Assembly: GCA_965200765.1 (NCBI GenBank)
Contig: OZ241380.1
Span: 2,784,329-2,848,328 of the forward strand
From: Arenicellales bacterium
Lineage (GTDB): Bacteria > Pseudomonadota > Gammaproteobacteria > Arenicellales > JAJDZL01
Length of the DNA: 64,000 nt
Reading direction: 5' to 3'
This document shows, one piece after another, positions 2,017 to 33,100 of the stretch. Every line of letters starts with the position of its first letter. Positions within the stretch are counted from its first letter, which is position 1. Position numbers and translations under genes: made by a program. Under the pieces are notes generated by a model that saw only the letters and a program-made list of their open reading frames with translations, was not told the origin of the DNA and did no database searches.

Positions 2017-3129
2017 ATGACTGCTTACATCATCCGGCGACTGTTGCTGATCATTCCTACATTGTTTGCGATCATGGTGATCAACTTCGCGGTGATCCAC
2101 ATCGCACCCGGCGGTCCGATTGAGCAAATCATCGCTGAAATGACCGGTCAAGGAAGCATTACCGAGCGGGTTACCCGAACCGGAACCGGAGAAATCCTCG
2201 AGCAGTCAGTCGGGCAAGCAGAGCAGATTGGAACCGAAGCAACCAGCCGATACCGCGGCGCACAAGGACTGGATCCGGAATTTATTCGGGAACTGGAAGA
2301 ACGATTCGGTTTTGACAAGCCATTGCATGAGCGTTTCTTGCAGACCATGAAAAACTACATTCTGTTTGATTTTGGCGAAAGTTTTTTCCGCGACCAGAAA
2401 GTAACGGATTTGGTATTTGAGAAAATGCCTGTATCCATCAGCTTGGGTCTGTGGACAACATTGCTTGTATATTTGATATCCATTCCTCTGGGGATTTCGA
2501 AAGCCGTTCGGGACGGATCACAATTTGACGGATGGACAACGGTTGTGTTGATCGTGGGTACCGCAATTCCGGGATTTCTCTTTGCGGTTTTTCTTCTGGT
2601 TATTTTTGCGGGCGGCAGTTATCTGGACTGGTTTCCACTTGCCGGATTGGTTTCGGAAAACTGGGATGACTTGACGTTTACAGGGAAAATTCTCGACTAC
2701 TTCTGGCACCTTACGCTACCGGTAATCGCGATGGTCATCGGCGGTTTTGCAGGTCTCGCAATGCTGACCAAGAACTCGTTTCTCGATCAAATCAATCAAC
2801 AGTATGTTTTGACCGCCAAAGCAAAGGGGTTGACCGAAAAACGAGTCTTGTACGGGCATGTGTTTCGCAATGCGATGCTGATAGTCATTGCCGGATTTCC
2901 CGGGGCGTTTGTCGGCATTTTGTTTACCGGTGCCTTGTTGATTGAAATCATTTTTTCCCTGGACGGACTTGGGCTGCTGGGTTTTGAAGCGGCCTTCAAG
3001 CGCGACTACCCGGTCATGTTCGCTACGCTTTACTTCTTTTCACTTTTGGGACTCATGATGAATCTGGTTGGTGATCTGATGTACATGCTCATTGATCCAC
3101 GAATTGATTTTGAGACACGGGAGTTCTGA
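2017..3129 (+). CDS. yejB: ABC transporter permease, YejB-like (peptide/microcin-type importer)
   Basis: 370 aa. The N-terminus [20 protein letters not shown] and a DppB/OppB-type permease core with a long periplasmic insert match YejB. It is followed by yejE- and yejF-like genes. Confidence 0.8.
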
Positions 3130-3133
3130 ATTT

Positions 3134-4210
3134 ATGGAACAGACTAACGTAATCGAAATTCCCGAGCGTCCAAAATTTCTGGGCATGGAAGTAAGCGAGC
3201 TGACGCGTCGACGACTGGACAAGTTTCGTGCACACAAGCGCGGTTACTGGTCTCTCTGGATTTTCATTGGACTGTTTACGATTGCATTGTTTTCGGAGTT
3301 TGTTGCCAATGACAAACCTTTTCTCGTGTACTACAAGAGCGAGTACTATTTTCCGGTACTGAAGCAATATCCGGAAACGACTTTTGACGGCATATTCGAA
3401 ACTGAAGCTGACTATAACGACCCATTCGTTCGGGAGCAGATTGAGCGAAATGGATGGGCCTGGTGGCCGCCGATTCGCTACAACTACCGGACAGTTGCCT
3501 GGGATCTGCCGTCGCCGGCACCGTCGCCGCCGGATTCGGTGCATTGGCTGGGCACGGATGACCAGGCACGTGATGTAGTTGCACGTCTGTTGTACGGTTT
3601 CAGAATATCTGTATTATTCGGATTTACCTTGACGGTAATCAGTGCCATCATAGGGGTTGCCGCGGGCGCGGTACAAGGATATTTTGGCGGCTGGCTTGAT
3701 CTGCTGTTTCAGCGATTTATCGAGATTTGGGCCGGAATGCCAACCCTGTATCTGCTGATTATTCTGGCCAGTGTTGTTGAACCCAATTTCTGGTGGTTGC
3801 TTGGGCTGTTGCTGTTGTTTTCCTGGATGGGGTTCGTCGGCGTTGTTCGCGCCGAATTTTTGCGAGCGCGGAATTTCGATTATGTTCGCGCCGCTCGTGC
3901 ATTGGGTATCAGTGATGCCAGAATCATGTTCCAGCATGTCTTGCCGAATGCAATGGTGGCAACAATGACATTTCTTCCATTCACACTGGCCGGTTCTGTG
4001 ACCGTATTGACTTCGCTGGATTTTCTGGGAATCGGACTGCCACCGGGGTCCGCTTCGCTGGGTGAATTGCTGGCGCAAGGCAAGGCCAACTTGCAGGCAC
4101 CGTGGCTGGGTCTCACCGGTTTCTTTGCAATACTCGTCATGCTGTGCCTGCTGATGTTTATCGGGGAAGCGGTACGCGATGCGTTTGATCCACGCACTTC
4201 CAACAAATAA
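3134..4210 (+). CDS. yejE: ABC transporter permease, YejE-like
   Basis: DppC/OppC-type permease with HWLGTDDQARDV and TM segments. I prefer the ATG at 3134 (MEQTN...) over the track start at 3092, which overlaps yejB. Confidence 0.8.
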   Translation: MEQTNVIEIPERPKFLGMEVSELTRRRLDKFRAHKRGYWSLWIFIGLFTIALFSEFVANDKPFLVYYKSEYYFPVLKQYPETTFDGIFETEADYNDPFVREQIERNGWAWWPPIRYNYRTVAWDLPSPAPSPPDSVHWLGTDDQARDVVARLLYGFRISVLFGFTLTVISAIIGVAAGAVQGYFGGWLDLLFQRFIEIWAGMPTLYLLIILASVVEPNFWWLLGLLLLFSWMGFVGVVRAEFLRARNFDYVRAARALGISDARIMFQHVLPNAMVATMTFLPFTLAGSVTVLTSLDFLGIGLPPGSASLGELLAQGKANLQAPWLGLTGFFAILVMLCLLMFIGEAVRDAFDPRTSNK

Positions 4211-5879: not shown

Positions 5880-6146
5880 CTAATCAGTATTGATGATTTG
5901 CTTGTCTGCCAGCAGTTTCTCAAGTGCGCGAAGCCAAACTTCATAGTAGGTTACTTGAAGGTCTCCCGTCTGCTGATCATTCTCTTTGACCTCATTTGAA
6001 AGATATTGACTCCATTCTGCCCAAGTAAAATATTTTTGATCATATAGCGATACTGTCATCGCAAAAACCTTCGCTTCCCAAGGCGTTGCAAAAACGGGTT
6101 CATCACCACCCGCGAACTTGATCAAAGATTCAGAATCAACTTTCAT
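5880..6146 (-). CDS. Nitrile hydratase accessory/activator protein (P14K/NhlE-like)
   Basis: The C-terminal 88 aa of the 5880..6389 ORF (MKVDSESLIKFAGGDEPVFATPWEAKVFAMTVSLY...YYEVWLRALEKLL) resembles the beta-N-like NHase activator family. The ATG at 6146 overlaps the stop of the preceding gene by 11 nt. Confidence 0.6.
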   Translation of the reverse strand: MKVDSESLIKFAGGDEPVFATPWEAKVFAMTVSLYDQKYFTWAEWSQYLSNEVKENDQQTGDLQVTYYEVWLRALEKLLADKQIINTD

Positions 6147-6483
6147 GCGGGTCCAGATAATCTTCAAACAAGTCAACAAGGACTGCATCCTTTGAGTCTC
6201 TGCCCCATAGCTCGTGTCCTTCAAAACGAACACAGTACAGTCTTTGCGGTTCTTTGATGCGTTCAGCATGCTTGTCTGGAAATATGAATACGCCTTGATC
6301 TCTGACAATCGTGCCGCGTTTGCCCCGAACATAGCGCGGCAATCGAATATGTCCGTGCGGGTTGAGGTTCTTCGCAACGACTGTATCACCTACAGAGTAC
6401 TTCGCCGGAGCATTTTCTGGTAGTCGCGCAGATCCTCCGCGTTGCAGGAAATCCCAAACATGATCAGCGGTCATTGGTTTCAT
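6136..6483 (-). CDS. Nitrile hydratase beta subunit, C-terminal half (separate ORF)
   Basis: 115 aa. The stretch KYSVGDTVVAKNLNPHGHIRLPRYVRGKRGTIVRDQGVFIFPD...LYCVRFEGHELWG matches the SH3-like C-terminal domain of NHase beta. The ATG is preceded by GGAGGAG. Confidence 0.8.
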   Translation of the reverse strand: MKPMTADHVWDFLQRGGSARLPENAPAKYSVGDTVVAKNLNPHGHIRLPRYVRGKRGTIVRDQGVFIFPDKHAERIKEPQRLYCVRFEGHELWGRDSKDAVLVDLFEDYLDPHES

Positions 6484-6486
6484 TGG

Positions 6487-6801
6487 CTACTTCTCCTCCA
6501 GATTTCTGAGCTCGTCCATTCGCTGGTCAATTTCTTCGTGAGTCAACAACCCGGTTTCAATGAGAAGCATTTCCAGCCCGTGAAGCCAGTGCTCATAGTA
6601 ACTGGTCGACAAATACTCTGCCGGTTCAGTGCATTCGCGCGCATAGCGCGACATATCCAGGTTCCACTGTCCAAGAAAACCGGCACCCATCGTAATCGCG
6701 AATGCTCGGCGTTCCCATTCGTGATGAAAAACCGGTTCATCTGTTTCAGGATTGATCGGACCAAATCCATGCATTCCACCCAAGTCATGCGCGCCGTTCA
6801 T
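6487..6801 (-). CDS. Nitrile hydratase beta subunit, N-terminal half (separate ORF ending at an in-frame TAG)
   Basis: 104 aa. [34 protein letters not shown]...YYEHWL is the canonical NHase beta N-terminus. Its start overlaps the alpha stop (ATGA). Confidence 0.8.
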
Positions 6802-7409
6802 TGCACATCCTCCGCTGACTTGGCCAGTCCGGTCCCGATCATTGAATCACGCGTCACCAACTTTGCCAGTTCCGTCTCACTCATCCCTTCCGTACCTTTC
6901 GGACGACGCGGAATTACGAGATATCGCACTTCCGCGGTACTGTCCCAGACTCTGATTTCAACATCTGCATCAAGTTCCACTCCAAATTCGGTGAGTACGC
7001 TTCGCGGTTCCGAAACTGCACGGGCCCGATAGGGCGGCGATTTATACCATACCGGTGGCAAGCCCAGCACAGGCCACGGATAGCACGAGCACAGAGTACA
7101 AACAACCATGTTGTGCACTGTCTCGGTGTTTTCCACAACGACCATGTCCTCTCCCTGTCGTCCCTCAAAGCCCAATTCCCGAATTGCTTCGCTGGCATTT
7201 TCAAGTAAACGCTCACGATAGCTGGGATCACTCCATGCACGAGCTACTACTTTTGCACCGTTCTGGGGACCTACCCGATGTTCGTAGATATCAATAACTT
7301 CATCAAGCGTCGCCGGGTCGACCAAGCCTTTTTCAATCAGCAAGGATTCCAGCGCCTTTACTTTCAGTTCAACTTCTGAAGGTGGGTGTTCATGCTTGTG
7401 CTTCGACAT
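6798..7409 (-). CDS. nthA: Nitrile hydratase alpha subunit, cobalt type
   Basis: 203 aa with the metal-binding claw [10 protein letters not shown]. The CTLCSC-Y form is the Co-type signature. An AAGGAGA SD lies 7 nt upstream of the ATG. Confidence 0.9.
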
Positions 7410-7440: not shown

Positions 7441-8646
7441 TCATTGATTTGGAACTATGTCCACAAGAACATTGAGTAAAGTGAACCGTTCTTCTCCTGT
7501 AGTCGTAGACAGCCAACCTTTGCTTTTTTCATCGGTGTAGAACCGAAATTGAAAGCCTTTTTTGGCTTCTTTATCATAAACGACTCCGATTTGCCGATAC
7601 AACATGTCGTCAAACATTCGTGCCATCAGTTCCAGAAGATTCCCGCTCTCAAACATATTCACTGCAACTTCATTTGATTTTTCACTTTCCAAAATGGGAA
7701 TGTGAGTCAACTCAAAATCCTGTGTTTTCGGACCGAAAGGGGTGACTTCCAGTGTATCCATATTGAGAACATCGCCATTTTCCAAATAACTGAGTCGAAC
7801 ACCAACCATATTGATGCCGTCTTCGGAAATGGAGATTGACGCTTCACTCATGTCAATGATAACAACACCTTGGTCGCCAAGAATTTCAATCTGGTTGCCA
7901 TGTACCACTGCGGCAGTTTGCGGTGCAACACCGATGCCGTATTTCATATTGAACTGATGCATTGCAACAAGTGCGACTGCAAATCGCCCGGTTGTAAAGA
8001 AGTACTGGTCGACGTACCAGCCATCTTTCATAATCCCCAATCCTTGATGAATGGCCGCGTCATCAATACGTCCCTCAACCAACGGCTTTGTGGCATTTGC
8101 TGGTACGACAACTTTGCTACCCGGGATCCCGCCAACGATCAGTTTTCCAGTTTCATGGGCTTTTCGAATGGCGTTCGCGACTTTTGTAGGTGAGCCGTCT
8201 TTGTCAAACAGAATATCTGACAAGCGATGGGGTGAACCGCCAACAAAAAATACAGAACTAGAATTCTCTATGGCCGCTACCGTTTCCGGGCTTTGTGTTT
8301 CAATCCGGTAGTCGGTACTGAACTCCTGAAATACTTCTGCAATCGGAAGCAATACAGCGGATTCGCCGTATTGCTCGAATGCACGAACCGAGAATTCGCC
8401 GTAGAGTTTCGGCCTGTAGTTGGCGGCTGATATCACCAGATTTTCACCATCATTTCGATTGGCGATTTTGACCAGATTTCTCCAAATCAGCTTGTTGTTC
8501 AACGGCAAGACATCGCCCACCAGCATCAACGTGCTGGTTGATGATGCTACGGCCGGTAAAGTGGTGGTCAGCAACAGCACCAAGCACGCTATCCAAGCGG
8601 TAGTTGTGAAATTCGCTTTCAATTGATCGTAGTCGGGGGTGTTCAC
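7441..8646 (-). CDS. Secreted hypothetical protein, possibly cyanophycinase/S51 (class I GATase-like fold) related
   Basis: 401 aa with an N-terminal hydrophobic signal-like segment ([20 protein letters not shown]). There is loose resemblance to the S51 family (FFVGGSP..., LIVGGIPGS), but I found no clear G-x-S-x-G catalytic serine. It ends 31 nt upstream of nthA on the same strand. Confidence 0.4.
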
Positions 8647-14726: not shown

Positions 14727-15729
14727 GTTGATTTTCTTGCTCGTTTCGGTTGCTGTTGGTCAATTCCAGAAACAGGTTTTCCAGACGATTCGCCTTGTTG
14801 CGAACGCTGGCTACCTGAATTCCTAGCCGTGCCAGTGTTGACAGTGCCAACTCGATGGACTCTCCCCGATTGATGTCCAGTTCCGCAGTGTTTGTATCCA
14901 CCATGCGCATGATGCGATTGAAATTCTTCGGGACTGAGTGAAGCTCGTTTATCAAGTCCAGCAAATATGTTTCTTGCTGAATCCTTCCGGTCAGCGATTT
15001 CATGTCTGAATTCCAGACAAGTTCTCCCTGCTCAACGATCCCGACACTGCGACAAAGCCTTTCTGCATCTTCCAGGTAGTGAGTCGTCAAAATCACAGTA
15101 ACACCACTGTCGTTGAGTTGCTTGAAATACCCCCACATGCTGTGGCGGGTTTCAATGTCAACTCCTGCGGTGGGCTCGTCCAGTATCAGAAGCTTGGGTT
15201 CGTGCACCAAAGCACGCGCCACCATCAGTCGGCGCTTCATTCCACCAGACAGGCTCCGGGCGATCTTGTCTCTCATATGCCAAATTCCCAGCGCCTTCAG
15301 ATACTTGTGAGTACGCTCAATTGCCAGTGCCCGCGGTACGCCGTAGAATCCCGCTTGATAAGACACAATGTGCATTGGAGTATTGAACGGGTTGAAATTG
15401 AACTCCTGCGGCACAACTCCAAGATATGACTTCGCGCGACTGAAGTTTTCGTCAATATCGGTCCCGAACACTTTCACCGTTCCGGACGACTTGTTCACCA
15501 ATGAGCAGACGGTACCGATAATCGTTGATTTTCCGGCACCATTTCGTCCTAGCAGGGCAAAAAACTGCCCTGCCTGAACTTCAAAGGAAACATTGTTGAC
15601 CGCCTTGATTCCGTTTTCGTAAACCTTGGTCAGATTTTGGATGGACAACGCGGCATTTTTGTTGTTGTCGGGTTGCAAACTGGAAAAATGTTTAGCTGTG
15701 TGTCCAATTCGGTTTTCTTTTTTCCACAA
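14692..15729 (-). CDS. ABC transporter ATP-binding protein (YadG-like, ABC-2 exporter)
   Basis: Walker A GRNGAGKST, signature LSGGMKRRL and Walker B LLILDEPTAGVD. The annotated start overlaps the enoyl-CoA hydratase 3' end by 38 nt, so the true start is uncertain. Confidence 0.85.
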   Translation of the reverse strand: MWKKENRIGHTAKHFSSLQPDNNKNAALSIQNLTKVYENGIKAVNNVSFEVQAGQFFALLGRNGAGKSTIIGTVCSLVNKSSGTVKVFGTDIDENFSRAKSYLGVVPQEFNFNPFNTPMHIVSYQAGFYGVPRALAIERTHKYLKALGIWHMRDKIARSLSGGMKRRLMVARALVHEPKLLILDEPTAGVDIETRHSMWGYFKQLNDSGVTVILTTHYLEDAERLCRSVGIVEQGELVWNSDMKSLTGRIQQETYLLDLINELHSVPKNFNRIMRMVDTNTAELDINRGESIELALSTLARLGIQVASVRNKANRLENLFLELTNSNRNEQENQHDGIANDAHLS

Positions 15730-16468
15730 ATGCCGTCATGCCTTCTTTCTGGTCGTTGGTCCCGAACAACGCATGAAACATTCGCCGCTCGAACAGCACA
15801 CCTTCGCGCAACGTCGTCTCGAAGGACTTGTTAACCGCTTCCTTGGTCGCGGCAACCGCCAATCGCGACTGACTGGCTATCGACTGTCCAATACTGATCG
15901 CAGTATCCAGCATTTCATCTACCGGTACAACCCGCGAAGCCAGTCCGGACCGTTCGGCTTCCTCGGCCCCCATTCTGCGGCCAGTAAGACACATGTCCAT
16001 AGACTTTGACTTTCCGATGGCATGCGTCAATCGCTGCGTACCGCCGGCCCCGGGAATAATGCCAAGATTGATTTCCGGCTGTCCGAATTGTGCATTGTCG
16101 GCCGCGATGATCATGTCACACATCATCGCCAGTTCGCATCCGCCGCCCAACGCATAGCCGGCAACTGCTGCGATCGTCGGCTTTCGACAGGTCGTTACAC
16201 GTTCCCAGTTGCGAGTGATGAAATTCTGCAAATATGCATCCGCAAACGTATTGTCCTTCATTTGGCTGATGTCAGCGCCGGCCGCAAATGACTTCTCATT
16301 GCCGGTAATGACAATGGCACCAATTTCATCATCCGCTTCAAAGTTGTCGAGCGCCTTGCTCATTTCGTCCATGACCGCCGACGACAAGGCATTCAGTACT
16401 TTTGGCCGATTGATCGTGATGACTCCAACGTTTCCGTTCGTGCTGACAATGATGTTTTCGTAATTCAT
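15692..16468 (-). CDS. Enoyl-CoA hydratase (crotonase family)
   Basis: 258 aa with VGVITINRPKVLNAL...FAAGADI...ALGGGCELAMMCD, the crotonase oxyanion-hole motifs. Confidence 0.9.
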   Translation of the reverse strand: MNYENIIVSTNGNVGVITINRPKVLNALSSAVMDEMSKALDNFEADDEIGAIVITGNEKSFAAGADISQMKDNTFADAYLQNFITRNWERVTTCRKPTIAAVAGYALGGGCELAMMCDMIIAADNAQFGQPEINLGIIPGAGGTQRLTHAIGKSKSMDMCLTGRRMGAEEAERSGLASRVVPVDEMLDTAISIGQSIASQSRLAVAATKEAVNKSFETTLREGVLFERRMFHALFGTNDQKEGMTAFVEKRKPNWTHS

Positions 16469-16723
16469 TCCTGTTCAACTCCTGAGATTGATTGCACCGA
16501 ATTTTGCTGAACAATACCTGTTCAACCTGTTAAAATGACCCAACTTAATCAAAGTGAAAAGATTCTTGGTTGTGTGTCATGCAGATTGACAGCGTATTAT
16601 TCACCGACTTATTGTATTCGTCAATGCCGCATTGGATTGAAAAAACTGTATCAGGACACGGAAAACGGTTCGGTCCGCAGTTCATGTACAACACTGGATC
16701 TACCCAACCAACAGGGATAAGTT

Positions 16724-18622
16724 ATGGGAAATTATCAGAAAACCTTTGATCACTCTGTAAACAACCCCGAAGAGTTCTGGGGAGAAGTGGCCGAATCAGT
16801 TCACTGGTACCAATCCTGGGACAAGGTTCTGGATGACCGCGATGCTCCGTACTATCGCTGGTTTCCCGGTGCAGTTGTCAACACTTGCTACAACGCATTG
16901 GATATTCATGTCGAGCAGGGACGCGGGGACCAGAATGCACTGATTTACGATTCGGCAATGACCGGAGAAATTCGCCACTTTACCTACCGCGAACTTCTTG
17001 AAGAAACCGCCAAATTTGCCGGCGTTCTAAGAAGTCTGGGCGTAGAAAAAGGTAGCCGTGTTGTCATCTACATGCCGATGATTCCACAAACTGCGGTGGC
17101 CATGCTGGCCTGTGCCCGGCTAGGCGCGGTACACTCGGTTGTATTCGGTGGATTCGCGGCCAATGAACTTGCAGTGCGGATTGACGATGCACAACCGACT
17201 GCAATCGTTGCGGCTTCATGCGGACTGGAACCGGGGCGAACAATTGAATACAAGCCGCTATTGGACGAGGCTATAGAACTGTCGACACACAAGCCCCGTG
17301 CGTGTGTGATTTATCAGCGATCTCAGGCAAGAGCTACCATGGTCGAAGGACGCGACCACGACTGGCAAGAGTTGATGAACACCGTGGAACCAGTTGATTG
17401 CGTACCGGTGGCGGCAACAGACCCGCTGTATATTCTCTACACTTCCGGTACTACTGGACAACCCAAAGGCGTGGTCCGCGACAACGGCGGACACATTGTT
17501 TCACTGAAATGGTCCATGAAGAACATTTATGGGGTGGATCCCGGAGAAGTGTTCTGGGCCGCTTCGGATGTCGGTTGGGTTGTCGGCCACTCCTATATTG
17601 TTTACGCACCGCTGTTTGCCGGCAATACCAGTATTCTCTATGAAGGCAAACCGGTCGGCACACCGGACCCGGGTGCCTTCTGGCGAGTGCTTGCCCAGCA
17701 CAATGTTGCGGCATTGTTCACCGCGCCAACTGCCTATCGCGCGATCAAGAAAGAAGACCCGACCGGTTCCTACATCAAGAAGTACGATCTGTCAAATTTC
17801 AGAACACTGTTCCTGGCGGGCGAGCGTACCGACCCGGACACATTGCACTGGGCCGAGGAAAAGATGCAGGTACCGGTAATCGATCATTGGTGGCAAACGG
17901 AAACCGGCTGGGCCATCTGTGCGAATTGCATGGGTATTGAACACTTGCCGGTCAAGGAAGGTTCGCCGTCGAAACCCGTACCTGGCTGGAATCTCAAGGT
18001 GCTGGACGAAAATAACGAAATTGCCGGACCAAACGAAATCGGCTCATTGGCAGTCAAGTTGCCTTTGCCGCCAGGCAGTTTTCCGACTTTGTGGAATGCC
18101 AGACAACGATTCTTTGATGCTTATCTGGCCGATCATCCCGGCTACTACAAAACTGCCGATGCAGGATTTGTAGACGAAGAAAACTATGTCTATGTGATGT
18201 CCAGAACCGACGACATCATCAATGTTGCCGGACATCGCTTGTCTACTGGTGCCATGGAAGAAGTGCTGGCTGCACATCCGGATGTCGCGGAATGCGCGGT
18301 TACCGGCATTGCAGACTCACTCAAGGGGCAACTACCGCTGGGGTTGCTTGTGCTGAATGCCGGAGTTGACCGAAGCCACGATGATATTGTCAAGGAATGC
18401 GTCAAGCTGGTTCGACAGCAAATCGGGCCGGTGGCGGCCTTCAAGCTTGCCGTCGTCGTCAAGCGATTGCCGAAGACCCGTTCCGGAAAAATTTTACGCG
18501 GCACGATTCAGAAAATTGCCGACGATGAACCATGGAAGATGCCGGCCACCATTGATGACCCGGTGATCCTGGATGAAATCACTGATTCACTCGCAAGTAT
18601 CGGTTTTCCGAAAACTTCTTGA
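16724..18622 (+). CDS. prpE: Propionate--CoA ligase (propionyl-CoA synthetase)
   Basis: 632 aa. The N-terminus NPEEFWGEVAESVHWYQSWDKVLD...YRWFPGAVVNTCYNALD and the AMP-binding motif YTSGTTGQPKG match Acs/PrpE-type enzymes. It heads a methylmalonyl-pathway operon. Confidence 0.8.
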   Translation: MGNYQKTFDHSVNNPEEFWGEVAESVHWYQSWDKVLDDRDAPYYRWFPGAVVNTCYNALDIHVEQGRGDQNALIYDSAMTGEIRHFTYRELLEETAKFAGVLRSLGVEKGSRVVIYMPMIPQTAVAMLACARLGAVHSVVFGGFAANELAVRIDDAQPTAIVAASCGLEPGRTIEYKPLLDEAIELSTHKPRACVIYQRSQARATMVEGRDHDWQELMNTVEPVDCVPVAATDPLYILYTSGTTGQPKGVVRDNGGHIVSLKWSMKNIYGVDPGEVFWAASDVGWVVGHSYIVYAPLFAGNTSILYEGKPVGTPDPGAFWRVLAQHNVAALFTAPTAYRAIKKEDPTGSYIKKYDLSNFRTLFLAGERTDPDTLHWAEEKMQVPVIDHWWQTETGWAICANCMGIEHLPVKEGSPSKPVPGWNLKVLDENNEIAGPNEIGSLAVKLPLPPGSFPTLWNARQRFFDAYLADHPGYYKTADAGFVDEENYVYVMSRTDDIINVAGHRLSTGAMEEVLAAHPDVAECAVTGIADSLKGQLPLGLLVLNAGVDRSHDDIVKECVKLVRQQIGPVAAFKLAVVVKRLPKTRSGKILRGTIQKIADDEPWKMPATIDDPVILDEITDSLASIGFPKTS

Positions 18623-18658
18623 ATTGCACTGATTCAATCCGGAATCGAAAACAAGAAC

Positions 18659-20824
<2,166 letters not shown>

Positions 20825-20833
20825 GTCGGATCA

Positions 20834-22366
20834 ATGCAGGACATTCTGGAAAAACTTGAACAAAAACGCGCTGCTGCCAACCTGGGAGGCGGCGAAAAGC
20901 GGATTGTTGCGCAACACAAGAAGGGACGGTTGACTGCGCGAGAACGAATTGACCTGTTGCTGGATGACAGCAGTTTTGAAGAATGGGACATGTTTGTCGA
21001 GCACCGTTGCACCGACTTCGGCATGGCCGACAATAAAATTCCGGGCGACGGGGTCGTTACCGGATACGGAACCATTCATGGACGGCTGGTTTTCGTGTTC
21101 AGTCAGGATTTTACAGTGTACGGCGGTTCGTTGTCGGAAGCTCATGCTGAAAAGATCGGCAAACTGATGGACCAAGCGATCAAGGTCGGCGCACCGGTCA
21201 TTGGAATCAATGATTCCGGCGGTGCGCGTATTCAGGAAGGAGTTGCTTCGCTTGGCGGCTATGCCGATATCTTTCAGCGCAACGTAATGGCATCCGGTGT
21301 CATCCCGCAGATTTCGCTCATCATGGGCCCCTGTGCCGGTGGCGCTGTCTATTCCCCGGCAATTACAGATTTCATCTTCATGGTGCGAGACAGTTCATAC
21401 ATGTTCGTCACGGGGCCCGACGTAACCAAGACTGTTACACATGAAGAAGTCAGTGCGGAGCAACTGGGCGGAGCATCGGCCCATACAACCAAGTCCGGCG
21501 TTGCCGACGGTGCATTTGAAAATGATATTGAAGCATTGTTGATGATGCGCCGGTTTTTCGACTATCTTCCAGCCAGCAATGAGGCACCGGCACCAATTCA
21601 TGAAACCGGCGACTCGGCGGATCGGGAAGAACCTTCGTTGGATACTCTGGTGCCGACCGACCCCAACCAGCCCTACGACATGAAAGAATTGATCATCAAG
21701 GTGGCCGACAATGAGGAATTTTTTGAGCTGAAGCCTGACCATGCCGCCAACATTGTGATCGGATTTGTACGCATGGAAGGTGAAACAGTCGGAGTTGTTG
21801 CCAATCAACCACTGGTGCTTGCCGGGTGTCTCGATATACATTCCTCTCTGAAAGCGGCAAGATTTGTCCGGTTTTGCGATGCTTTTCAGATTCCTGTTCT
21901 CACCTTTGTTGATGTACCCGGGTTTATGCCGGGCACTGCCCAGGAGCATGGCGGCATCATCAAGCATGGTGCAAAGTTGCTGTATGCATATGCTGAGGCA
22001 ACGATCCCGAAAATTACCGTCATTACCCGCAAGGCGTACGGCGGAGCTTATGATGTGATGAGCTCCAAACACCTTCGCGGGGACGTGAATTTCGCTTGGC
22101 CCAGTGCAGAAATTGCAGTGATGGGTCCCAAAGGAGCAGTTGAAATTATTTTTCGCGCTGACCTCGGAGATGAACAAAAAATTGCGACGCGTACAGAAGA
22201 GTATCGTGAGAAATTCGCCAATCCTTTTGTCGCTGCCAGTCGCGGCTTTATCGACGACGTGATTATGCCTAGCGCTACGCGTAAACGCGTGTGTCGTTCC
22301 TTGGCGATGCTCCGCGACAAGCAACTCGACAATCCCTGGCGCAAGCATGGAAACATTCCACTGTAA
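20834..22366 (+). CDS. pccB: Propionyl-CoA carboxylase beta subunit (carboxyltransferase)
   Basis: 510 aa with a carboxyltransferase N/C domain pattern ([10 protein letters not shown], ...AYGGAYDVM). Confidence 0.93.
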
Positions 22367-22381
22367 AGCACAACCGGATCC

Positions 22382-24379
22382 ATGTTCAAGAAAATTCTGA
22401 TTGCCAATCGCGGAGAAATCGCCTGCCGCGTGATTCGTACCGCCAAACGCATGGGCATACAAACTGTTGCGGTATTTTCCGATGCCGATGCAATTGCATT
22501 GCACACCCAAAGTGCCGATGAAGCCGTTCATATTGGACCACCGCCTGCGGCAGAGAGCTATCTTAAAGTTGACAAGATTATTGATGCTTGCAAGCAAACC
22601 GGCGCAGAAGCTGTGCATCCTGGCTATGGATTTTTATCTGAAAATACTGACTTCTGCCAGCGATTGGCAGATGCCGGCATTGTATTCATTGGACCGGGGC
22701 CGGACGCAATTACTGCAATGGGCGACAAAATTACCTCCAAGCAAATCGCACGCGATGCGAATGTCAGCGTGATCCCGGGTTTTGATGATGTCATCGAAAA
22801 CCCGAAACATGCAGTGGAGTTGGCCCGACAAGTTGGCTATCCGGTGATGCTTAAGCCGGCAGGTGCCGGGGGAGGCAAAGGAATGCGGCTTGCCTACAGT
22901 GATCAAGAGTGTGCCGAAGGCTTTGAACGGTCCACCAGCGAAGCCAAAGCACAATTTGACGATGGACGGGTATTTGTCGAAAAATATATTGAAAATCCGC
23001 GGCACATTGAAATTCAGGTGTTGGCGGACAGTTTTGGACACGTCATTTATCTGGGTGAACGCGAATGCTCCCTGCAACGTCGCCATCAAAAAGTCATTGA
23101 AGAAGCACCGTCACCGTTTCTGGATGCGGAAACCCGAAAAGCAATCGGCGAGCAGGCCGTGGCACTGGCCAAAGCAGTCAATTACAAATCGGCCGGCACG
23201 GTGGAGTTTGTGGTTGACAAGCACCGCAAATTTTATTTTCTGGAAATGAATACGCGGTTGCAGGTGGAGCATCCGGTTACGGAGTTCACCACCGGACTGG
23301 ATTTGGTGGAATGGATGATCAAAATTGCTGCGGGTGAACCGCTGACAATGAAGCAATCTGACCTCCAGGTCAACGGCTGGTCCATTGAATCACGAATTTA
23401 CGCCGAAGATCCAGCAAGAAACTTCTTGCCGTCCATCGGGCGACTCGTTCGCTATCGTCCGCCGCAGGGAAACGATCAAATTCGGGTAGATACCGGTGTT
23501 TTTGAAGGCGGAGAGGTGCCTTTGTATTACGACCCCATCATTGCCAAACTGGTGGTGCATAGTGATACGCGACAAAATGCGCTCGAAGCAATGGCAACCG
23601 CACTGGATCGATATTTGATAAAAGGCGTGGTGACCAATATTCCATTTTTACAGGCGCTGATACGTGATCCGGTAGTGAAAAATGGTGATATGACGACCAA
23701 TTACATAGAACAGGCGTATCCGGATGGCTATAACTGCGAGTCTGCAGAATGCACAAATCTGGAGTCCGTGGTCCTGGTCTCCGCAATCGTAAACTACATG
23801 ACACTGTTACAATCGGCCCAGTACGATGGCCATTTCACCTCACGAACCTGGTCGCCGCACAGGGAATGGGTGGTGATTTTGAATGGTGACCACTATCCGG
23901 TATCCGTCGAGGAGAGCAACAATGGACACTTGTTGGAATACCAGGGTCAAACTCTAGAAGTCAACCATGAGTGGGCACCCGGCAAAACTCTGTTTACGGG
24001 CACTTTGGATGGCAAAGAAATCATTGTGCAAATCACCCGAAAGGGAATCACTTATCAAGTCGACCACCAAGGTCAACGATTGTTTGTCAAGGTTCTGTCG
24101 GAAAGAGCATCTCAATACAACGAACACATGCTGGTTGCTGAATCATCATCAGTATCTCCGTACCTTGCTTCGCCGATGCCAGGTCTTCTGGTGAAAATCA
24201 GTGTTCGTGAAGGACAGAAAATCAAGGCAGGTGAAGCCGTTGCAATCGTGGAAGCGATGAAAATGGAAAATGTCTTGCGCGCTGAACGCGACGGCACTGT
24301 TGTGAAAATTCTTTCCGAAGTTGGTGACAGTTTGGCCGCCGATCAGCCAATCATTGAATTTGAGCAGGAAGACGCATGA
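22382..24379 (+). CDS. pccA: Propionyl-CoA carboxylase alpha subunit (biotin carboxylase + BCCP domain)
   Basis: 665 aa with MFKKILIANRGEIACRVIRT, an ATP-grasp core and the C-terminal biotinylation motif EAMKMEN. Confidence 0.93.
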   Translation: MFKKILIANRGEIACRVIRTAKRMGIQTVAVFSDADAIALHTQSADEAVHIGPPPAAESYLKVDKIIDACKQTGAEAVHPGYGFLSENTDFCQRLADAGIVFIGPGPDAITAMGDKITSKQIARDANVSVIPGFDDVIENPKHAVELARQVGYPVMLKPAGAGGGKGMRLAYSDQECAEGFERSTSEAKAQFDDGRVFVEKYIENPRHIEIQVLADSFGHVIYLGERECSLQRRHQKVIEEAPSPFLDAETRKAIGEQAVALAKAVNYKSAGTVEFVVDKHRKFYFLEMNTRLQVEHPVTEFTTGLDLVEWMIKIAAGEPLTMKQSDLQVNGWSIESRIYAEDPARNFLPSIGRLVRYRPPQGNDQIRVDTGVFEGGEVPLYYDPIIAKLVVHSDTRQNALEAMATALDRYLIKGVVTNIPFLQALIRDPVVKNGDMTTNYIEQAYPDGYNCESAECTNLESVVLVSAIVNYMTLLQSAQYDGHFTSRTWSPHREWVVILNGDHYPVSVEESNNGHLLEYQGQTLEVNHEWAPGKTLFTGTLDGKEIIVQITRKGITYQVDHQGQRLFVKVLSERASQYNEHMLVAESSSVSPYLASPMPGLLVKISVREGQKIKAGEAVAIVEAMKMENVLRAERDGTVVKILSEVGDSLAADQPIIEFEQEDA

Positions 24380-26333: not shown

Positions 26334-29300
26334 ATGCCCAGATTAACGCGCCTGATTCATATTTCAAAACAGGCAACCCTGATTTCCTTGGTATTGTGGC
26401 TATTCATGCCGAGCGCATTTGCCCAGTCAGTCAGTTGTAATCCATCTACCAATCCTGCGCCGAATACAGGCACCGCTCCTGCTTCAATTACAAATCCGGC
26501 CGGTAAAGCAATCGCTCGACAAAATCAGGGCGAACATGGCATTGTTGCTTCGGACTCAGCGTCTGCACAAAACGCCATGGCCACGAACCGGGGAACCATC
26601 GTTCTGTGCGGAGATGTGCTGGAAAGCAACGACGGAGATGGTAACCCAACTTCTACGGTCGCTGTTGCTGTATCAGCGACGGCAAGCGAGTCTTCTCGAA
26701 GTACCGCAACTGTTTCCAATGAAGCAGGGGGTACGATTGAAACTCGGGGACGTGCGAGTCCGGGTATGCTCGCAACGACGGACAACACAGGCAAGGCGGT
26801 CGCAATCAATCGCGGTTCAATCCGTACAACCGGCGGCGGATACGACAGAAAAATTCGACAAACAGACCTTGCGTTTGGATTGGCGGTTGCTGATGGCATT
26901 GAAGTCTTTGCCAACGATGAAGGTGCTGCCGAAGTGATTAATGAAGCCGGTGCCAGTATTGAGACAACCGGACCCGGAGCACGCGGGATTCGGGTAGCAG
27001 GAGAATCGTCAGGAGCTGTTTCCGTGACGAATCGGGGTCGTATCACAACGCGCGGAAATCCCTATTTCAATGCACAATTCCAGTACTTGCAAGCCAATGG
27101 TATTCGTCTGACATCAGGCGGGTCCGGGGCGGCCACCATGATCAATGAAGGCACAATTGAAACCTTCGGCGTGAATGCAGATGCAGTTTATGTTCGTTCC
27201 CAGGCCGGATTGTCATCCGCGGTCAACCGCGGGCGCATCATTGCTCATAGCAAAGGTGCCACACCGCTTCCGGGAAGAACCTTTGAACGCAACTCACGCG
27301 GCATGCATGTCTGGGCCGGGCTTGATTCTTCCCGAGCCGTCAATGAAAAAAGCGGCATTATTGAAACGAGAGGTCACCATTCACACGCAGTGATCACCGG
27401 AATCAATGGCAACAATCAGCGCTATTCAGTTTCAACCAATGCAATCAATCGTGGAACAGTGACCACCCGGGGTGATTTCGCTTATGGCATCTACGCTTAC
27501 GGCGAAAACGGCGGTACCGCGGACAACCCGAACACAATTCGTGCCGTGAACGAGCAAACCGGTGCAATTGCAACGCACGGAAATGAATCACATGCACTTG
27601 TTGCATGGTTGTGGGACAACGGCGACAGCGACAGTTTTGGTACGATAATCGCAGAAAACCACGGTGCTATTACTACCACTGGTGACTACGCACCCACCGA
27701 TGACCGAAAACGCGTGATCGGCGTAGAAGCCGGGCAATTTCGAGGCGCAAGTCGACCTCGCGGCAAGTCGGGAGATTCACTTGTCATCAATACCGGAACC
27801 GTACAGGCAACCGGAAAACTCTCGTACGGCCTTAGTGCGTTCAACTACGCAAGCGGCAAATCAACCATCAAAATGACTGGCGGCAGTGTTGTGGCCGGCA
27901 CCGCCAATACAAACTATGGTGTTGGCGTTTACGCAGCCGTGCAAACTTCTGTTGCCAATGATGCAGTGGATGATGTTGACATTGACATTCAGATTACTGG
28001 CAGTGAAACAACTGTAACTGCACACAGTGCACCGGCGGATGACCCGCTTACGACAGAGCACCTGGATACACTGGGTACCGGAATCTGGGCCGAAATCAAC
28101 CCGGTGGAATCTGCCCAACCTGACCGGTCCGGACATATCAGTGTTCTGGTTTCAAATGGCGCGACCATCACCGCGAAACGAGCTGTTTTTTTTGAAGGCG
28201 GTACGACTGCATTCACTCTTAAGGAAAGCACCCTGACCGGTTCTGTTGTATTTGACAATTTCGCAGATAATTTTACGGTGCAAGGCGGCCTGGTTGAAGG
28301 TGCCATTGAATTTGCCAAAGGCAATGACCAGCTAACGATTACGAACCGCGGCTACATTACCGGCAATCTGGATTTTGGTGATGGAAGTGACACTCTGCTT
28401 CTTGACGTAGACGGCTATGGCACCCAGGCCAGCAAATTAGGCGGAGTGATCTCCGGACTGGAAGTAATGACGAAGCGCGGCACCGGCGATGTACTGGTCC
28501 GGGATGCAACATCCGAAGGCACAACACTCGTAGTCGAAGAAGGTATGCTGATCATCGCCGGACATCTCAATCTTGGTTCTGCCGGAACAGTTACAATTCG
28601 CGACAACTCTCGCCTGTCATTCCGGATTGGTGCCAATAGCAATGGAAAAATTACGGCCGGCCAAGGTGTAGCATTTCTGGACAGCAAACCGGAAATTTTT
28701 GTTGAAATTGCACCTGAGTTGACTGGTGAGCAGCAACAGACCGTGAACGCAAGGCTGATGCAAGGCGTTGATTTGCTTGGCGACGGTACAAATTTCACTC
28801 AGAAAGCTGAAGAAAATGCACCGGCCGAGAACACCGAAGCAAGCGTACGAACAGTTGGCGGCAAACAAATCGGTACAGTACAAACACATGGCTCCACTAC
28901 CATCACAGCAAATGCCCGTCAAGGCGCAACAATTGAAGTTGCCGCCAAGTCCGCTACTAGGCCCGCGCCAGACAACGATGACAATGCTTATCTGGGAGCA
29001 GCTGCACTTGCTGTACTGTGGTGGTTGATGCGTGACAAAGAAGAAACAAATCTGGTGGATTATGAATCCGGAAACTCAAATGCCGCGAATACTTATTCGC
29101 CACTCAATAACCAAGTCACAGACAATCCTGTCGTGCCGTGGGTTCGCTATTACACTGACAACGGTATCGCACCTGTTCAGGGAATGGCACTTGGCATTGA
29201 TACACAGTTCGGAAATTCGGGGCAAGTACGATTGTCGGTGATGCCTGAGGCAACGGGAAAATCGAATACCGGGAGATTGCATCTCAATGAATCTTCAAGT

Positions 29301-29945
29301 TTTGAAGGCCATAACTTCATGCTTGAGAGTCGTTTCGGAAGAGATTCAATCTTTGCGACTGTCCATGCATCACGAGGACAATACCAAACACACTCGTCAT
29401 TTCGCAGCAATGCTACTCAAGGTAGACTGAGCGGTAACTTCAACATGGTTCAAAATCATTTTCAGGCAAGTGCAGGAATACAGTTTGAACCGGTGAACGG
29501 ACTGGAGTTGATATCGACGATTGGAATCTATCGCGGCTCAGTTCAACAAAGTGAATTTGTCGCTGGAAACTCGGTGCTGACAACGACCCTTCCAAGTAAC
29601 ACCCGAAAGTATCATGGCTGGAAGTTCGGGCTAAATGCACGATTCAAGGAATGGATTGGCACTTCAGGTGCCTTGAAGTTGCAACCACAATTTGGACTCA
29701 GCACGTATCGGACCTATACAGATGGTCCGTCATCCGTGGCACTCAGTCAATCCGAACGCTCTGGTGTGCTACGTTTTACAGAACAGCTTCGTTTGCAAAG
29801 CCTTCCGCAAACTGTCTTCGCATTCAATGCCGGTCTGAAAGTTCATAAATCAAGGGACATGCATTTGAAGCTGAACTATGCTGTCATCTCAATGCGCGAA
29901 GAAATTCACCACGGAGCATTTGGAAAGTTGCAAATTAATTTTTAG
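26334..29945 (+). CDS. Large autotransporter-type outer-membrane protein (paralogue 1)
   Basis: 1203 aa with a signal peptide (LISLVLWLFMPSAFAQS). The passenger carries about 10 iterations of [AV][IV]N[RE]G-x-I-x-T-x-G. The C-terminal ~280 aa have alternating beta-strand character and end in ...LQINF, a terminal aromatic residue. Confidence 0.75.
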   Translation: MPRLTRLIHISKQATLISLVLWLFMPSAFAQSVSCNPSTNPAPNTGTAPASITNPAGKAIARQNQGEHGIVASDSASAQNAMATNRGTIVLCGDVLESNDGDGNPTSTVAVAVSATASESSRSTATVSNEAGGTIETRGRASPGMLATTDNTGKAVAINRGSIRTTGGGYDRKIRQTDLAFGLAVADGIEVFANDEGAAEVINEAGASIETTGPGARGIRVAGESSGAVSVTNRGRITTRGNPYFNAQFQYLQANGIRLTSGGSGAATMINEGTIETFGVNADAVYVRSQAGLSSAVNRGRIIAHSKGATPLPGRTFERNSRGMHVWAGLDSSRAVNEKSGIIETRGHHSHAVITGINGNNQRYSVSTNAINRGTVTTRGDFAYGIYAYGENGGTADNPNTIRAVNEQTGAIATHGNESHALVAWLWDNGDSDSFGTIIAENHGAITTTGDYAPTDDRKRVIGVEAGQFRGASRPRGKSGDSLVINTGTVQATGKLSYGLSAFNYASGKSTIKMTGGSVVAGTANTNYGVGVYAAVQTSVANDAVDDVDIDIQITGSETTVTAHSAPADDPLTTEHLDTLGTGIWAEINPVESAQPDRSGHISVLVSNGATITAKRAVFFEGGTTAFTLKESTLTGSVVFDNFADNFTVQGGLVEGAIEFAKGNDQLTITNRGYITGNLDFGDGSDTLLLDVDGYGTQASKLGGVISGLEVMTKRGTGDVLVRDATSEGTTLVVEEGMLIIAGHLNLGSAGTVTIRDNSRLSFRIGANSNGKITAGQGVAFLDSKPEIFVEIAPELTGEQQQTVNARLMQGVDLLGDGTNFTQKAEENAPAENTEASVRTVGGKQIGTVQTHGSTTITANARQGATIEVAAKSATRPAPDNDDNAYLGAAALAVLWWLMRDKEETNLVDYESGNSNAANTYSPLNNQVTDNPVVPWVRYYTDNGIAPVQGMALGIDTQFGNSGQVRLSVMPEATGKSNTGRLHLNESSSFEGHNFMLESRFGRDSIFATVHASRGQYQTHSSFRSNATQGRLSGNFNMVQNHFQASAGIQFEPVNGLELISTIGIYRGSVQQSEFVAGNSVLTTTLPSNTRKYHGWKFGLNARFKEWIGTSGALKLQPQFGLSTYRTYTDGPSSVALSQSERSGVLRFTEQLRLQSLPQTVFAFNAGLKVHKSRDMHLKLNYAVISMREEIHHGAFGKLQINF

Positions 29946-30019: not shown

Positions 30020-30161
30020 AACACTTTGGCTTGTGTGTTCTATTCCCGGTTTTGGTACTCCTCCCAAAATCTTGTTGTCTCTGATTTGCAACATTCATGT
30101 ATGGTATAGCCTTTGCAACGTCCACATTATCAATAACAACAAAACCTGCAATTCAGACAAG

Positions 30162-33100
30162 ATGACAGGCAAATCATTTTTCAAAATAACCAGCGTTCAA
30201 CAAGGCTTCCGAACAACAACCCTTATTTTGTTCTTGCTCGCGGGATTCTGCTTGCTCAACTCTGCAACGGTATTTCCCCAAACCATTCCCTGCAATCCAA
30301 CAGATACAGCCAGTACGCGCGTGGCCGTAACCGGGTCATTTGCCAACCCTGTCGGTACAACCATCATTCGCCAAAACTCAGCTGAAACCGGCATTGATGT
30401 ATCTGAATCGACTCAAACCATGTCGGCGACGGCAACCAATTCAGGAACAGTCGTTACATGCGGCGGTGTCTCAGAATACAACGATGAACAGGGTAATCCT
30501 GCGTCAGCCTATGCCTTCGGGGTTCGGGCAACAGCAACTTCCAGCAAAGGCATCGCAACCGTTGTCAATGAAAACTCCGGAACCATTGAAACGCGCGGTA
30601 GCGCCAGCAAAGGACTGGCAGCTTTCACCAGTGGCGACGGCACAGCCAGTGCAACTAACCGCGGACGTATTCTTACAACCGGCGGTACCTATTTTCGCGG
30701 GATACGGGAAAGTTTCATCAATGACACGCTGGCCTCGGATGGTATTTTCGTCAACGCTTTGGGAAATGGCAATGCAGAAGCAACCAATGAAGCAGGCGCA
30801 CAGATTGCAACCCGGGGTCCAGGTGCACGCGGCATGACTGCAGTGGCTTCCAACGACCCGATGGAAAATGACCCGGAACCACAGTTTGTTTCTACTGGCG
30901 ATGCAACCGCCATCAACCGCGGCACCGTTACCACTTACGGGTCAGCACTCATCCGAATTGAAGAGTCTGTTCTGTTTCTGCGCGAGGCGAACGGCATTCA
31001 CGCGAGTACGATTTCAGGAGATGCTACTGTAATCAACGAAGGCAAAGTCGAAACTCACGGAATCACTTCGGACGGCTTGCATGCGCAATCTCAATCAGGT
31101 GATGCCAATGCCATCAATCGCGGTCGAATCATAACCACCAATGAATTTCCGCGAATGCGGCCACGGTGGCATACCACACTCAGTTCACATGGAATTTATG
31201 CATGGTCGGAAACCGGTCATGTGTCAGCGGTGAACGAAGTTGAAGGATCTATACAAACCTCCGGGGTTCGCGCATATGGAATTTTTGCAGGATTTTTTGG
31301 CGATGACAGTGCAACAAAACAAACCGCTGATGCTGTGAACAGAGGCTCCATCACGACTCGCGGTCATGACGCAGACGCGGTGGTGGCGTTCACACTCAAC
31401 GGCGGCACTGCCAGAAACCCGAATACTGCATATGCCGTCAATGAAAAAGGCGGCACCATTGTGGGCACGGGCAATCGAACATACGGTGTATCCAGTTGGT
31501 TGTTTGAATCCAGGGATGGACACGGATACGGCCACGTCATTGCCGAGAACCATGGTTCCATCACCTTGTCGGGAGACCCCTTGGCCGTTGGACACCACTG
31601 GGGGGTTGTCGGGGTACAGGCAACTCAGGAACATTTGACCAATGACGACCCGCGTGGCCATACCGGAGACACCATCGCTCGCAATACCGGCGATATCTTC
31701 GTAACCGGAAAACGGGCGAATGCCATCAGTGCTGAAAGCTATGGCAACGGCTTGTCGGTTGTAGAGATTACTGGCGGAACGGTCGTCGCGGGCAAGGCCG
31801 GCGAAAACAATGGCGTCGCAATTGAAACCGCAGTGCAGACTGCCGCCGCCGAAGACTTGAGCGACGATATAGATATTGATGTATTGATCTCGGGAGAAAA
31901 CACCACTGTCACTGCACACAGCGCCGCCTCTGATAACCCGGAAACTCCCTACAGGGACGATATTGGAATTGGAATTCTTGCGATAATCAATTCCGGCGAA
32001 ACTTTGCCTGAAGATACCAGCGGCCACATACGCGCCCGAATTACGGACGGAGCAACATTGACAGCAAAGTATGCAACGATTTTCGACGGCGCACGGACTT
32101 CGTTCGATATCATTGAAAGCACTGTTAACGGCTTTGTCTGGCTAACAAGTTTTGCTGATGTCGTAACTCTGCAGGGCGGCTATGTCAATGGCAATATCGA
32201 TATGGATGACGGCGACGACACCTTCACCATAAAAAATCGGGGCTATGTTACCGGTGGTATTCAGTTCGGCGGCGGTGCTGATTCTTTGGTGCTTGATGTG
32301 GCCGGAATCGATGGACAGGCAAGTAGCATCAGCGGTTCAATAATGGGACTTGAAACAATGATCAAACGCGGCACCGGACAAGTTCGTATTAGTAATGCCG
32401 GCATGGACAGTGGCAAAGTTCAAATTGAAAATGGTTCATTGATTGTCGCCGGCCACCTTGACTTGGGCAGCACTGGCGAAGTCACTATTCGCAACGACTC
32501 GAAACTGGTGTTTGAGATTGGCAACTTTATTGTTGATTCCAACCTGCAGGGAAAGATAACGGCTGGTGGCGGTGTAAAGTTTGTCGACGATTCCAATCCG
32601 GAAATTTCCTTGCAACTTGCGGCCAGCATGAACGACGATGTGGCCAAGGTCGTTCAAAGTCAACTACGACAGGGAGTAAGCGTGCTTGGCGACAATACTA
32701 GTTTCAAAAAATCTGCTTCGACCGGAAGTGATGCAGACACAAACCCTGTCGTCAAGTCAATTCGCGGGGGAATTGTTGGTTCTGCAACTGCAACAGGCCT
32801 CGTATCAACTACTAGCGACGTTGCATCAGGTGCAGAAATATCTTCAGAAGCCGGACTCACTGCCGCTGACAGTTCATCTAATAATCAGGGATACTATGTT
32901 GCCGGTGCCTTGATTGCCTGGTTGCTGAGCAGTTCATGTGAAGATAACATGGAATCAGATAGCCAGGAAATCCGGTCCGCCTGGAACTGTTTCAACAGTT
33001 ACGACTCACCGCATACCATTAATTACGACCAAAATCAGCGATTTTATCTGAGTGTCGAATCGGACCCATCATCGGCAAGTGCACTCTCGCATTCGCAGGG

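Follow-up and report, generated by a model that had tools for sequence, protein, structure and literature searches.

Is a nitrile hydratase whose beta-subunit gene is interrupted by an in-frame stop codon a decaying relic, or is it an intact enzyme whose beta subunit is made in two pieces? This question is raised by a minus-strand operon found between positions 5880 and 7409 of a 64,000-nucleotide (nt) stretch of the genome of an Arenicellales bacterium (GenBank assembly GCA_965200765.1, contig OZ241380.1), hereafter the window, to which all coordinates refer unless another locus is named. In this operon, the genes of the alpha subunit and of a small activator-like protein of a cobalt-type nitrile hydratase (NHase) flank two short open reading frames (ORFs), each coding for one half of the beta subunit. 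An earlier, sequence-only reading of this DNA had proposed a natural three-subunit NHase, and had listed a recent nonsense mutation, a sequencing error and stop-codon readthrough as alternatives. We consider it very likely that the locus is an intact cobalt-type NHase operon, whose beta subunit is both encoded and made as two polypeptides, and whose enzyme is therefore composed of three subunits. The genes are intact, the split is conserved, both halves of beta evolve under purifying selection, and the key motifs are retained.

Organization of the Operon

The ORF list and a direct reading of the minus strand between 5400 and 8200 reveal four tightly packed genes on that strand. The first codes for a cobalt-type alpha subunit of 203 amino acids (aa; 6798-7409) bearing the motif [10 protein letters not shown], and its stop codon shares 4 nt (ATGA) with the start of the gene for beta-N (6487-6801; 104 aa), the free-standing N-terminal helical domain of an NHase beta subunit. 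The beta-N stop codon TAG (6489-6487) and a single spacer codon, CCA (6486-6484), form the junction (6484-6489) that separates it from the ATG (6483-6481) of beta-C (6136-6483; 115 aa), the free-standing C-terminal SH3-like domain, which is read in the same frame as beta-N. A Shine-Dalgarno (SD)-like sequence, GGAGGAG (6499-6493), lies within the last beta-N codons, 9 nt 5' of the ATG of beta-C. Finally, the end of beta-C overlaps by 11 nt the start of a gene (5880-6146; 88 aa) coding for a P14K/NhlE-like NHase accessory or activator protein, a paralogue of beta-N. The gene order and sizes, the single reading frame across TAG-CCA and the SD-preceded restart had all been called by the sequence-only reading and stand as described.

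The metal-binding motif of NHases, C(T)LCSC(Y), contains Thr and Tyr in cobalt enzymes and Ser and Thr in iron enzymes, and the alpha subunit of the window, with [10 protein letters not shown], is of the cobalt form. In profile searches, alpha scored 314.2 bits against TIGR01323, above the cut-off of 249.85, and matched PF02979 with an E-value of 4e-92; its closest chains in the Protein Data Bank (PDB) are the cobalt NHase alpha subunits of 4ob1 and 3qxe (E-values of 1e-89 to 1e-92). Beta-N matched PF21006 (5e-43) and aligned to residues 1-99 of solved cobalt NHase beta chains, while beta-C matched PF02211 (7e-31) and aligned to residues 112-218 of 3qxe_B, with its HxRxPRYxRGK motif kept. When the two halves were concatenated, residues 1-216 of the query aligned to residues 1-218 of 3qxe_B, the 219-aa beta subunit of Pseudomonas putida, with an E-value of 1.7e-53. 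This end-to-end alignment bears out the earlier proposal that the halves add up to a normal beta subunit and that the break falls between its domains, the split point being the poorly conserved linker that joins the helical N-domain to the SH3-like C-domain. Taken singly, the halves score 135 and 116 bits against the beta-subunit model TIGR03888, both under its cut-off of 152. The accessory ORF scores 80 bits against TIGR03889, for a cut-off of 46, and gives a weaker match to PF21006 (4e-10).

Arg52, Tyr68 and Trp72 of beta, together with the second Arg of its C-terminal domain, are the residues in contact with the oxidised cysteines and the substrate (numbering of Pseudonocardia thermophila). 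The first three are invariant or nearly so in beta-N among 37 homologues, and HIRLPRYVRGK of beta-C aligns with HTRMPRYTRGK of 3qxe_B. Since R52, Y68 and W72 are carried by beta-N and HxRxPRYxRGK by beta-C, both halves would be needed.

A split beta subunit is also found in thiocyanate hydrolase (SCNase; PDB 2dd4) and in the toyocamycin NHase ToyJKL (PMC8574189), and the product of the window could be a three-subunit relative of this kind, dedicated to a specialised substrate, rather than a general NHase. We regard this as unlikely. Alpha passes the NHase alpha model, whereas it scores only 186.4 bits against the SCNase gamma model TIGR03887, the cut-off of which is 291.45; likewise, beta-N matches SCNase beta with an E-value of 3e-4, compared with 7e-24 for the NHase beta of P. 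putida. As for the toyocamycin type, the neighbouring ORFs that were scanned (200 aa or longer, between 366 and 58775) include none for deazapurine biosynthesis. Moreover, the closest relatives with a fused beta are ordinary alpha-beta-accessory NHases.

The In-Frame TAG as a Gene Boundary

That the TAG could be a sequencing or assembly error is countered by its recurrence in independent datasets. An 85.8-kb metagenome scaffold of the ENA (L001) and a Logan assembly from another run (L002) both encode the exact beta-C protein along with the same four genes, and the TAG-CCA-ATG junction is identical in the window, L001 and L002. As L001 and L002 are mutually identical across the NHase genes, they represent one further strain recovered in two datasets, not two strains; in the aligned flanks, 2.6% of the bases of L001 and 1.7% of those of L002 depart from the window. 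The junction recurs in L086, a diverged contig from another sample, and the probability of an error is negligible.

Comparison of the window with the strain represented by L001 and L002 reveals an uneven distribution of differences: a single nt out of 1275 differs in alpha, beta-N and beta-C taken together, against 23 of 1206 in the S51-like gene located upstream of alpha and 8 of 267 in the accessory gene. The unusually low divergence of the structural genes reflects either strong constraint or recent recombination.

L086, the beta-N of which is 93% identical to that of the window, possesses the in-frame TAG-CCA-ATG as well, with AGGAG at a similar distance before the ATG. Between the window and L086, the ratio of non-synonymous to synonymous substitution rates (dN/dS) is 0.066 for alpha and 0.095 for beta-N. 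For the first 49 codons past the stop, dN/dS is 0.093 at a synonymous divergence (dS) of 0.60, with 15 synonymous versus 6 non-synonymous differences in these beta-C codons. Such a low dN/dS after the TAG indicates that the downstream sequence is translated and constrained.

These observations bear directly on the explanation that a recent nonsense mutation turned beta into a pseudogene and left the operon dead or dying. The two halves share a frame and are separated only by the TAG and one codon, as they would after a single-base nonsense mutation, and degraded relatives do exist (L008 and L037, which lack beta-C, and the frameshifted L082, discussed below). A stop of this origin would be private to one genome and followed by relaxed constraint, whereas the TAG of the window is shared by L001, L002 and L086, the last of these standing at a dS of about 0.3-0.6, and the codons that follow it show a dN/dS of 0.09. 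In addition, an ATG preceded by a well-spaced GGAGGAG comes directly after the stop, the downstream accessory gene is intact, and two ORFs are maintained in 33 related species, across different junctions and with a dN/dS of 0.12-0.41. A pseudogene is thus extremely improbable and, judging from these comparisons of sequences, the TAG is a conserved gene boundary, not a lesion. The stop-and-restart arrangement is found in orthologous loci and is not unique to this genome, and the three alternatives entertained by the sequence-only reading are each contradicted by the data.

The third of these alternatives assumes that the functional beta subunit is the full-length product of readthrough of the in-frame TAG, acting as a programmed or reassigned stop, and that the restart is incidental. 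Both lineages with this junction, i.e., the window group and L086, preserve the in-frame layout; however, these are close relatives, and their shared frame is accounted for by common descent. Reassignment of the stop codon is ruled out, as TAG terminates 6 of the 35 long ORFs of the window. Scans of the whole window for Rfam families and tRNAs returned no element and no tRNA, hence neither a recoding element nor a suppressor tRNA is present in it. Furthermore, beta-C is off-frame with or overlaps beta-N in almost all other split loci, so that a fused product is not needed in the family. Readthrough as the source of functional beta is therefore very unlikely.

Split Beta Genes among Relatives

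A search with the beta-N protein was carried out against 5.8 billion proteins, and the 120 best matches were examined. All 120 are 99-136 aa long, contain PF21006 only and share 66-93% identity with the query. In a complementary survey of loci, a beta-N alignment was used to scan one genome per species, and the nearest 80 loci were classified by script. Separate beta-N and beta-C ORFs were found in 33 of these 80 loci and a fused beta of 203-258 aa (mostly 216-232 aa) in 43; two loci contain alpha and beta-N only (L008 and L037), one contains a frameshifted fused gene (L082), and one, in which the beta-N ORF runs off the end of the contig, was left unclassified (L051). All 33 split loci display the gene order alpha, beta-N, beta-C and accessory gene. 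Together with the purifying selection observed past the stop, this recurrence lends support to the earlier suggestion of a natural three-subunit NHase.

The junction between the two halves takes at least eight forms, the in-frame TAG being one of them. Most commonly, the start of beta-C overlaps the stop of beta-N by 4 nt (NTGA), which places beta-C in frame +2. Other junctions consist of TGATG, of overlaps of 8, 14 or 29 nt in frame +1, or of spacers of 14 nt (L003) and 217 nt (L044). Among the split loci compared, the in-frame 3-nt spacer occurs in the window lineage only. Because beta-C is mostly out of frame with beta-N, readthrough is not the general route to beta, and the variety of the junctions implies that the conserved state consists of two independently initiated, usually translationally coupled genes. 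Across eleven split pairs, dN/dS ranges from 0.05 to 0.54 for alpha, 0.03 to 0.41 for beta-N, 0.12 to 0.41 for beta-C, and 0.09 to 0.30 for the accessory gene.

When beta-C was searched exhaustively, 1392 clusters were obtained at 50% identity; of the representatives of the best 150, 34 do not exceed 135 aa and 77 measure 200 aa or more. On the basis of these surveys, the split-beta organization appears widespread and common in uncultured marine and soil bacteria, and is not special to the genome of the window. Three representatives, P0134 (191 aa), P0136 (212 aa) and P0189 (244 aa), combine an N-terminal beta-C domain with roughly 80-130 extra residues. P0134 and P0136, which extend by about 80-100 residues at the C-terminus, were considered as fusions of beta-C with the accessory protein, a possibility that is ruled out since BLASTP detected no similarity of either to the accessory protein.

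Among the remaining loci, L008 (5001-5330 of that locus) and L037 (5001-5321) have intact alpha and beta-N genes, but unrelated sequence follows in place of beta-C and the accessory gene; these loci represent operons in decay or else systems made of alpha and beta-N only. L082 (5001-5653), from a metagenome-assembled genome of the Alphaproteobacteria, contains a fused-type beta gene broken by a frameshift inside the C-domain; whether a genuine pseudogene or the result of misassembly, it looks unlike the conserved splits.

Proposed Enzyme and Maturation

We infer the transcript structure, subunit stoichiometry, maturation route and activity of the system from the organization of the genes and their relatives. 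Alpha, beta-N, beta-C and the accessory gene, probably with the S51-like gene as well, would be expressed from a single transcript; the tight packing of the genes, with overlaps of 4 and 11 nt and a 3-nt spacer, fits such a transcript with coupled translation. Translation of beta-N would end at the TAG, and that of beta-C would start at the ATG located 3 nt downstream, by means of the GGAGGAG sequence. Beta-N and beta-C are predicted to pack on alpha like the two domains of a normal beta subunit and, by analogy with the toyocamycin NHase, the assembly would most likely be an (alpha/beta-N/beta-C)2 heterohexamer. The accessory protein may aid the insertion of cobalt into alpha and the oxidation of its cysteines by self-subunit swapping, as in the alpha-beta-P14K type of P. 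putida. The assembled enzyme would then hydrate a nitrile to the corresponding amide.

Several points weigh against this reading of the locus. As the halves are in frame in the window lineage, a minor readthrough product is possible. The lack of beta-C and of the accessory gene in L008 and L037 indicates that the system can decay. A scan for promoters and terminators between 5500 and 9500 returned counts no higher than those obtained for shuffled sequence, and is thus uninformative on the boundaries of the transcript. Finally, the scan of ORFs of 200 aa or more between 366 and 58775 detected neither an amidase nor a cobalt transporter in the vicinity, which agrees, for the amidase, with what had been noted earlier. 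Weighed against the conserved split and the constraint on both halves, these points leave a three-subunit cobalt NHase the very likely product of the operon.

Phylogenetic Distribution and Plasmid-Borne Copies

Two custom neighbor-joining trees with 200 bootstraps were built, one from alpha and beta-N and the other from beta-N and beta-C. In both, the window is the earliest branch of a clade almost wholly composed of Arenicellales (bootstrap values of 97 and 83), every member of which has a beta subunit that is split or further reduced. The other split groups are one of Gammaproteobacteria/Salibacteraceae (bootstrap value of 83), groups of Rokubacteria, and one of Alphaproteobacteria (Kiloniellaceae and Sneathiellales). 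The deep nodes have bootstrap values below 30, which makes the number of fission events uncountable.

Split beta genes are also present on plasmids of cultured strains, as found by tblastn against plasmid sequences. They lie at 2696-3357 of locus L083 on a plasmid of Agrobacterium vitis, with a TGATG junction, at 2690-3363 of L084 on a plasmid of Burkholderia sp. PAMC 26561, and at 2645-3342 of L085 on a plasmid of Gloeocapsopsis dulcis. These three copies group with the fused beta of P. putida (bootstrap value of 97), apart from the clade of the window. Such interleaving of split and fused states implies that fission or re-fusion has occurred more than once at this linker. CbtA/CbtB are encoded at the A. 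vitis and Burkholderia plasmid loci, and an amidase at the A. vitis locus as well. An IS3 transposase gene lies between nthA and beta-N in L084.

The interleaved trees, which were built without ToyJKL, the Streptomyces canus enzyme AnhDEA and the Microvirga flocculans enzyme PnhF, suggest that the fission events reported here are separate from those that gave rise to the split enzymes of Streptomyces and Microvirga. More speculatively, and in our view doubtful as a whole, the alpha/beta-N/beta-C/accessory operon could define a large, uncharacterised group of three-subunit cobalt NHases that arose by repeated independent fission, or by fission and re-fusion, at the same linker. The free beta-N would then serve more than a structural purpose, acting for instance as a swapping chaperone, as AnhD is reported to do, and would be the evolutionary intermediate from which beta-N-like accessory proteins originated. 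The hosts of this group are Arenicellales, other Gammaproteobacteria, Rokubacteria/Methylomirabilota and some Alphaproteobacteria, in addition to the Agrobacterium, Burkholderia and cyanobacterial plasmids.

Genomic Neighborhood

The S51/cyanophycinase-like ORF (7441-8646, minus strand) codes for a 401-aa protein with a signal-peptide-like N-terminus. Its end is separated from the start of alpha by 31 nt, as previously reported, and no terminator-like site was found in this gap; the operon probably starts with this gene. The protein scores 82.7 bits against TIGR02069, under the cut-off of 126.6, and has a weak match to PF03575, its closest match in the PDB being the cyanophycinase 7uqv (E-value of 6e-12). 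The nucleophile motif of cyanophycinases, GTSAGA, is replaced by GGIPG in the protein of the window, with loss of the canonical catalytic serine.

Homologues sharing 42-47% identity with this protein are encoded directly 5' of alpha in nine loci of the Arenicellales clade (L003, L009, L014, L020, L022, L025, L037, L044 and L052), and a tenth is found approximately 1.8 kb upstream of alpha in L073. All copies have GGIPG or GGISG, without a serine in place of the nucleophile, at the position of GTSAGA, and the protein bears a C-terminal extension of approximately 130 aa without any family match. Possibly, this is a periplasmic protein tied to the NHase operon that has no catalytic activity, or catalysis of another kind.

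Farther along the window, a propionyl-CoA/methylmalonyl-CoA cluster lies approximately 9 kb from the NHase genes (15692-24379) and codes for an enoyl-CoA hydratase, an acetyl/propionyl-CoA synthetase-like enzyme, a B12-dependent methylmalonyl-CoA mutase, and the beta and alpha subunits of propionyl-CoA carboxylase. It is followed on the plus strand by two adjacent ORFs of 1203 and 1277 aa (26334-29945 and 30033-33866), neither of which has a Pfam match at an E-value of 1e-6 or below, and then by a gene for an AMP-binding enzyme. The window is rich in peptidase-like genes, including the S51-like gene, a gamma-glutamyltranspeptidase gene at 44640-46154 and, on the minus strand between 51860 and 58775, genes for two subtilase-family (S8) proteins of 832 and 984 aa that flank the gene of an S9/DUF4189 protein.

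Implications for Annotation and Enzyme Discovery

The enzyme of the window belongs to a widespread clade that is unstudied and poorly annotated. Both halves of beta are missing from the PLSDB gene table for L083, and RefSeq labels both halves of L084 and L085 as "SH3-like domain-containing protein", although beta-N is not SH3-like. A 2012 survey put aside a Roseobacter beta subunit as "truncated" (PMC3323583), and annotation pipelines, as well as some published analyses, may treat split loci as truncated or leave them unrecognised. Given this poor naming, the missing entries in gene tables and the scores of the single halves, which fall under the TIGR03888 cut-off, the number of functional NHases in genomes from the sea and from soil is probably underestimated.

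The clade comprises numerous natural variants, which could help to reveal the interplay of the two domains of beta with the beta-N-like accessory protein during cobalt insertion, and which also supply new enzymes for biocatalysis. Annotation and enzyme discovery stand to benefit from the result, which involves no new principle and would not surprise a specialist of these enzymes.

Comparison with Known Systems

Three-subunit enzymes of the NHase family are already established, namely SCNase, ToyJKL, AnhDEA and PnhF. The first two had been named as precedents by the sequence-only reading, rightly so since both have a split beta, but the list was incomplete, as AnhDEA of S. canus and PnhF of M. 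flocculans belong on it too. A 2020 review distinguishes six gene organizations of NHases, among which alpha/beta-N/beta-C/activator does not figure (PMC7193024), and our search of the literature found no paper describing this organization or any NHase of Arenicellales.

SCNase of Thiobacillus thioparus (2dd4) resembles the system of the window in its three subunits (among them the counterparts of the N- and C-halves of NHase beta), in its activator and in its cobalt centre. It differs from it in that its beta subunit is 157 aa long and carries an N-terminal extension, and the alpha subunit of the window fails the SCNase gamma model. PnhF, encoded by a plasmid of M. flocculans, is a biochemically characterised, proteobacterial enzyme of the cobalt type with two beta-derived subunits (PMC11573777). 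Its alpha gene is located between the two beta genes (PMC11573777), whereas the latter are adjacent and downstream of alpha in the window.

The two Streptomyces enzymes serve as models of how such subunits may assemble. ToyJKL of Streptomyces rimosus is an (alpha-beta-gamma)2 heterohexamer with subunits of 21.2, 10 and 11.4 kDa (PMC8574189), sizes that equal those expected for the three predicted products of the window. ToyJKL is encoded in a deazapurine antibiotic cluster and acts on a nucleoside nitrile, a context that the locus of the window does not share. The cobalt-type NHase of S. canus is composed of beta halves of 10.4 and 11.35 kDa and an alpha subunit of 21.3 kDa (PMC7329996). It forms AnhD2E2A2 and requires all three subunits for full activity, AnhDA or AnhEA alone reaching at most 4% (PMC7329996). 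The N- and C-halves of its beta are separate proteins, as in the window; by its description, AnhDEA is nonetheless set apart by the gene order beta-N, beta-C, alpha and by the lack of an activator gene in the genome (PMC7329996), the operon of the window being alpha-first and equipped with an accessory gene.

The cobalt NHase of P. putida NRRL-18668 (alpha, beta and P14K; 3qxe) is the best match of solved structure for all parts of the system, with an E-value of 1e-89 for alpha. Self-subunit swapping is documented for this gene type (PMC3511329). Both operons start with alpha and end with a small accessory protein, and both alpha subunits have the same cobalt-type CTLCSCY motif. The difference lies in beta, which is one chain of 219 aa in P. 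putida, whereas in the window the chain is interrupted within the linker, at around residues 96-112, to give two polypeptides, one of 104 aa and the other of 115 aa.

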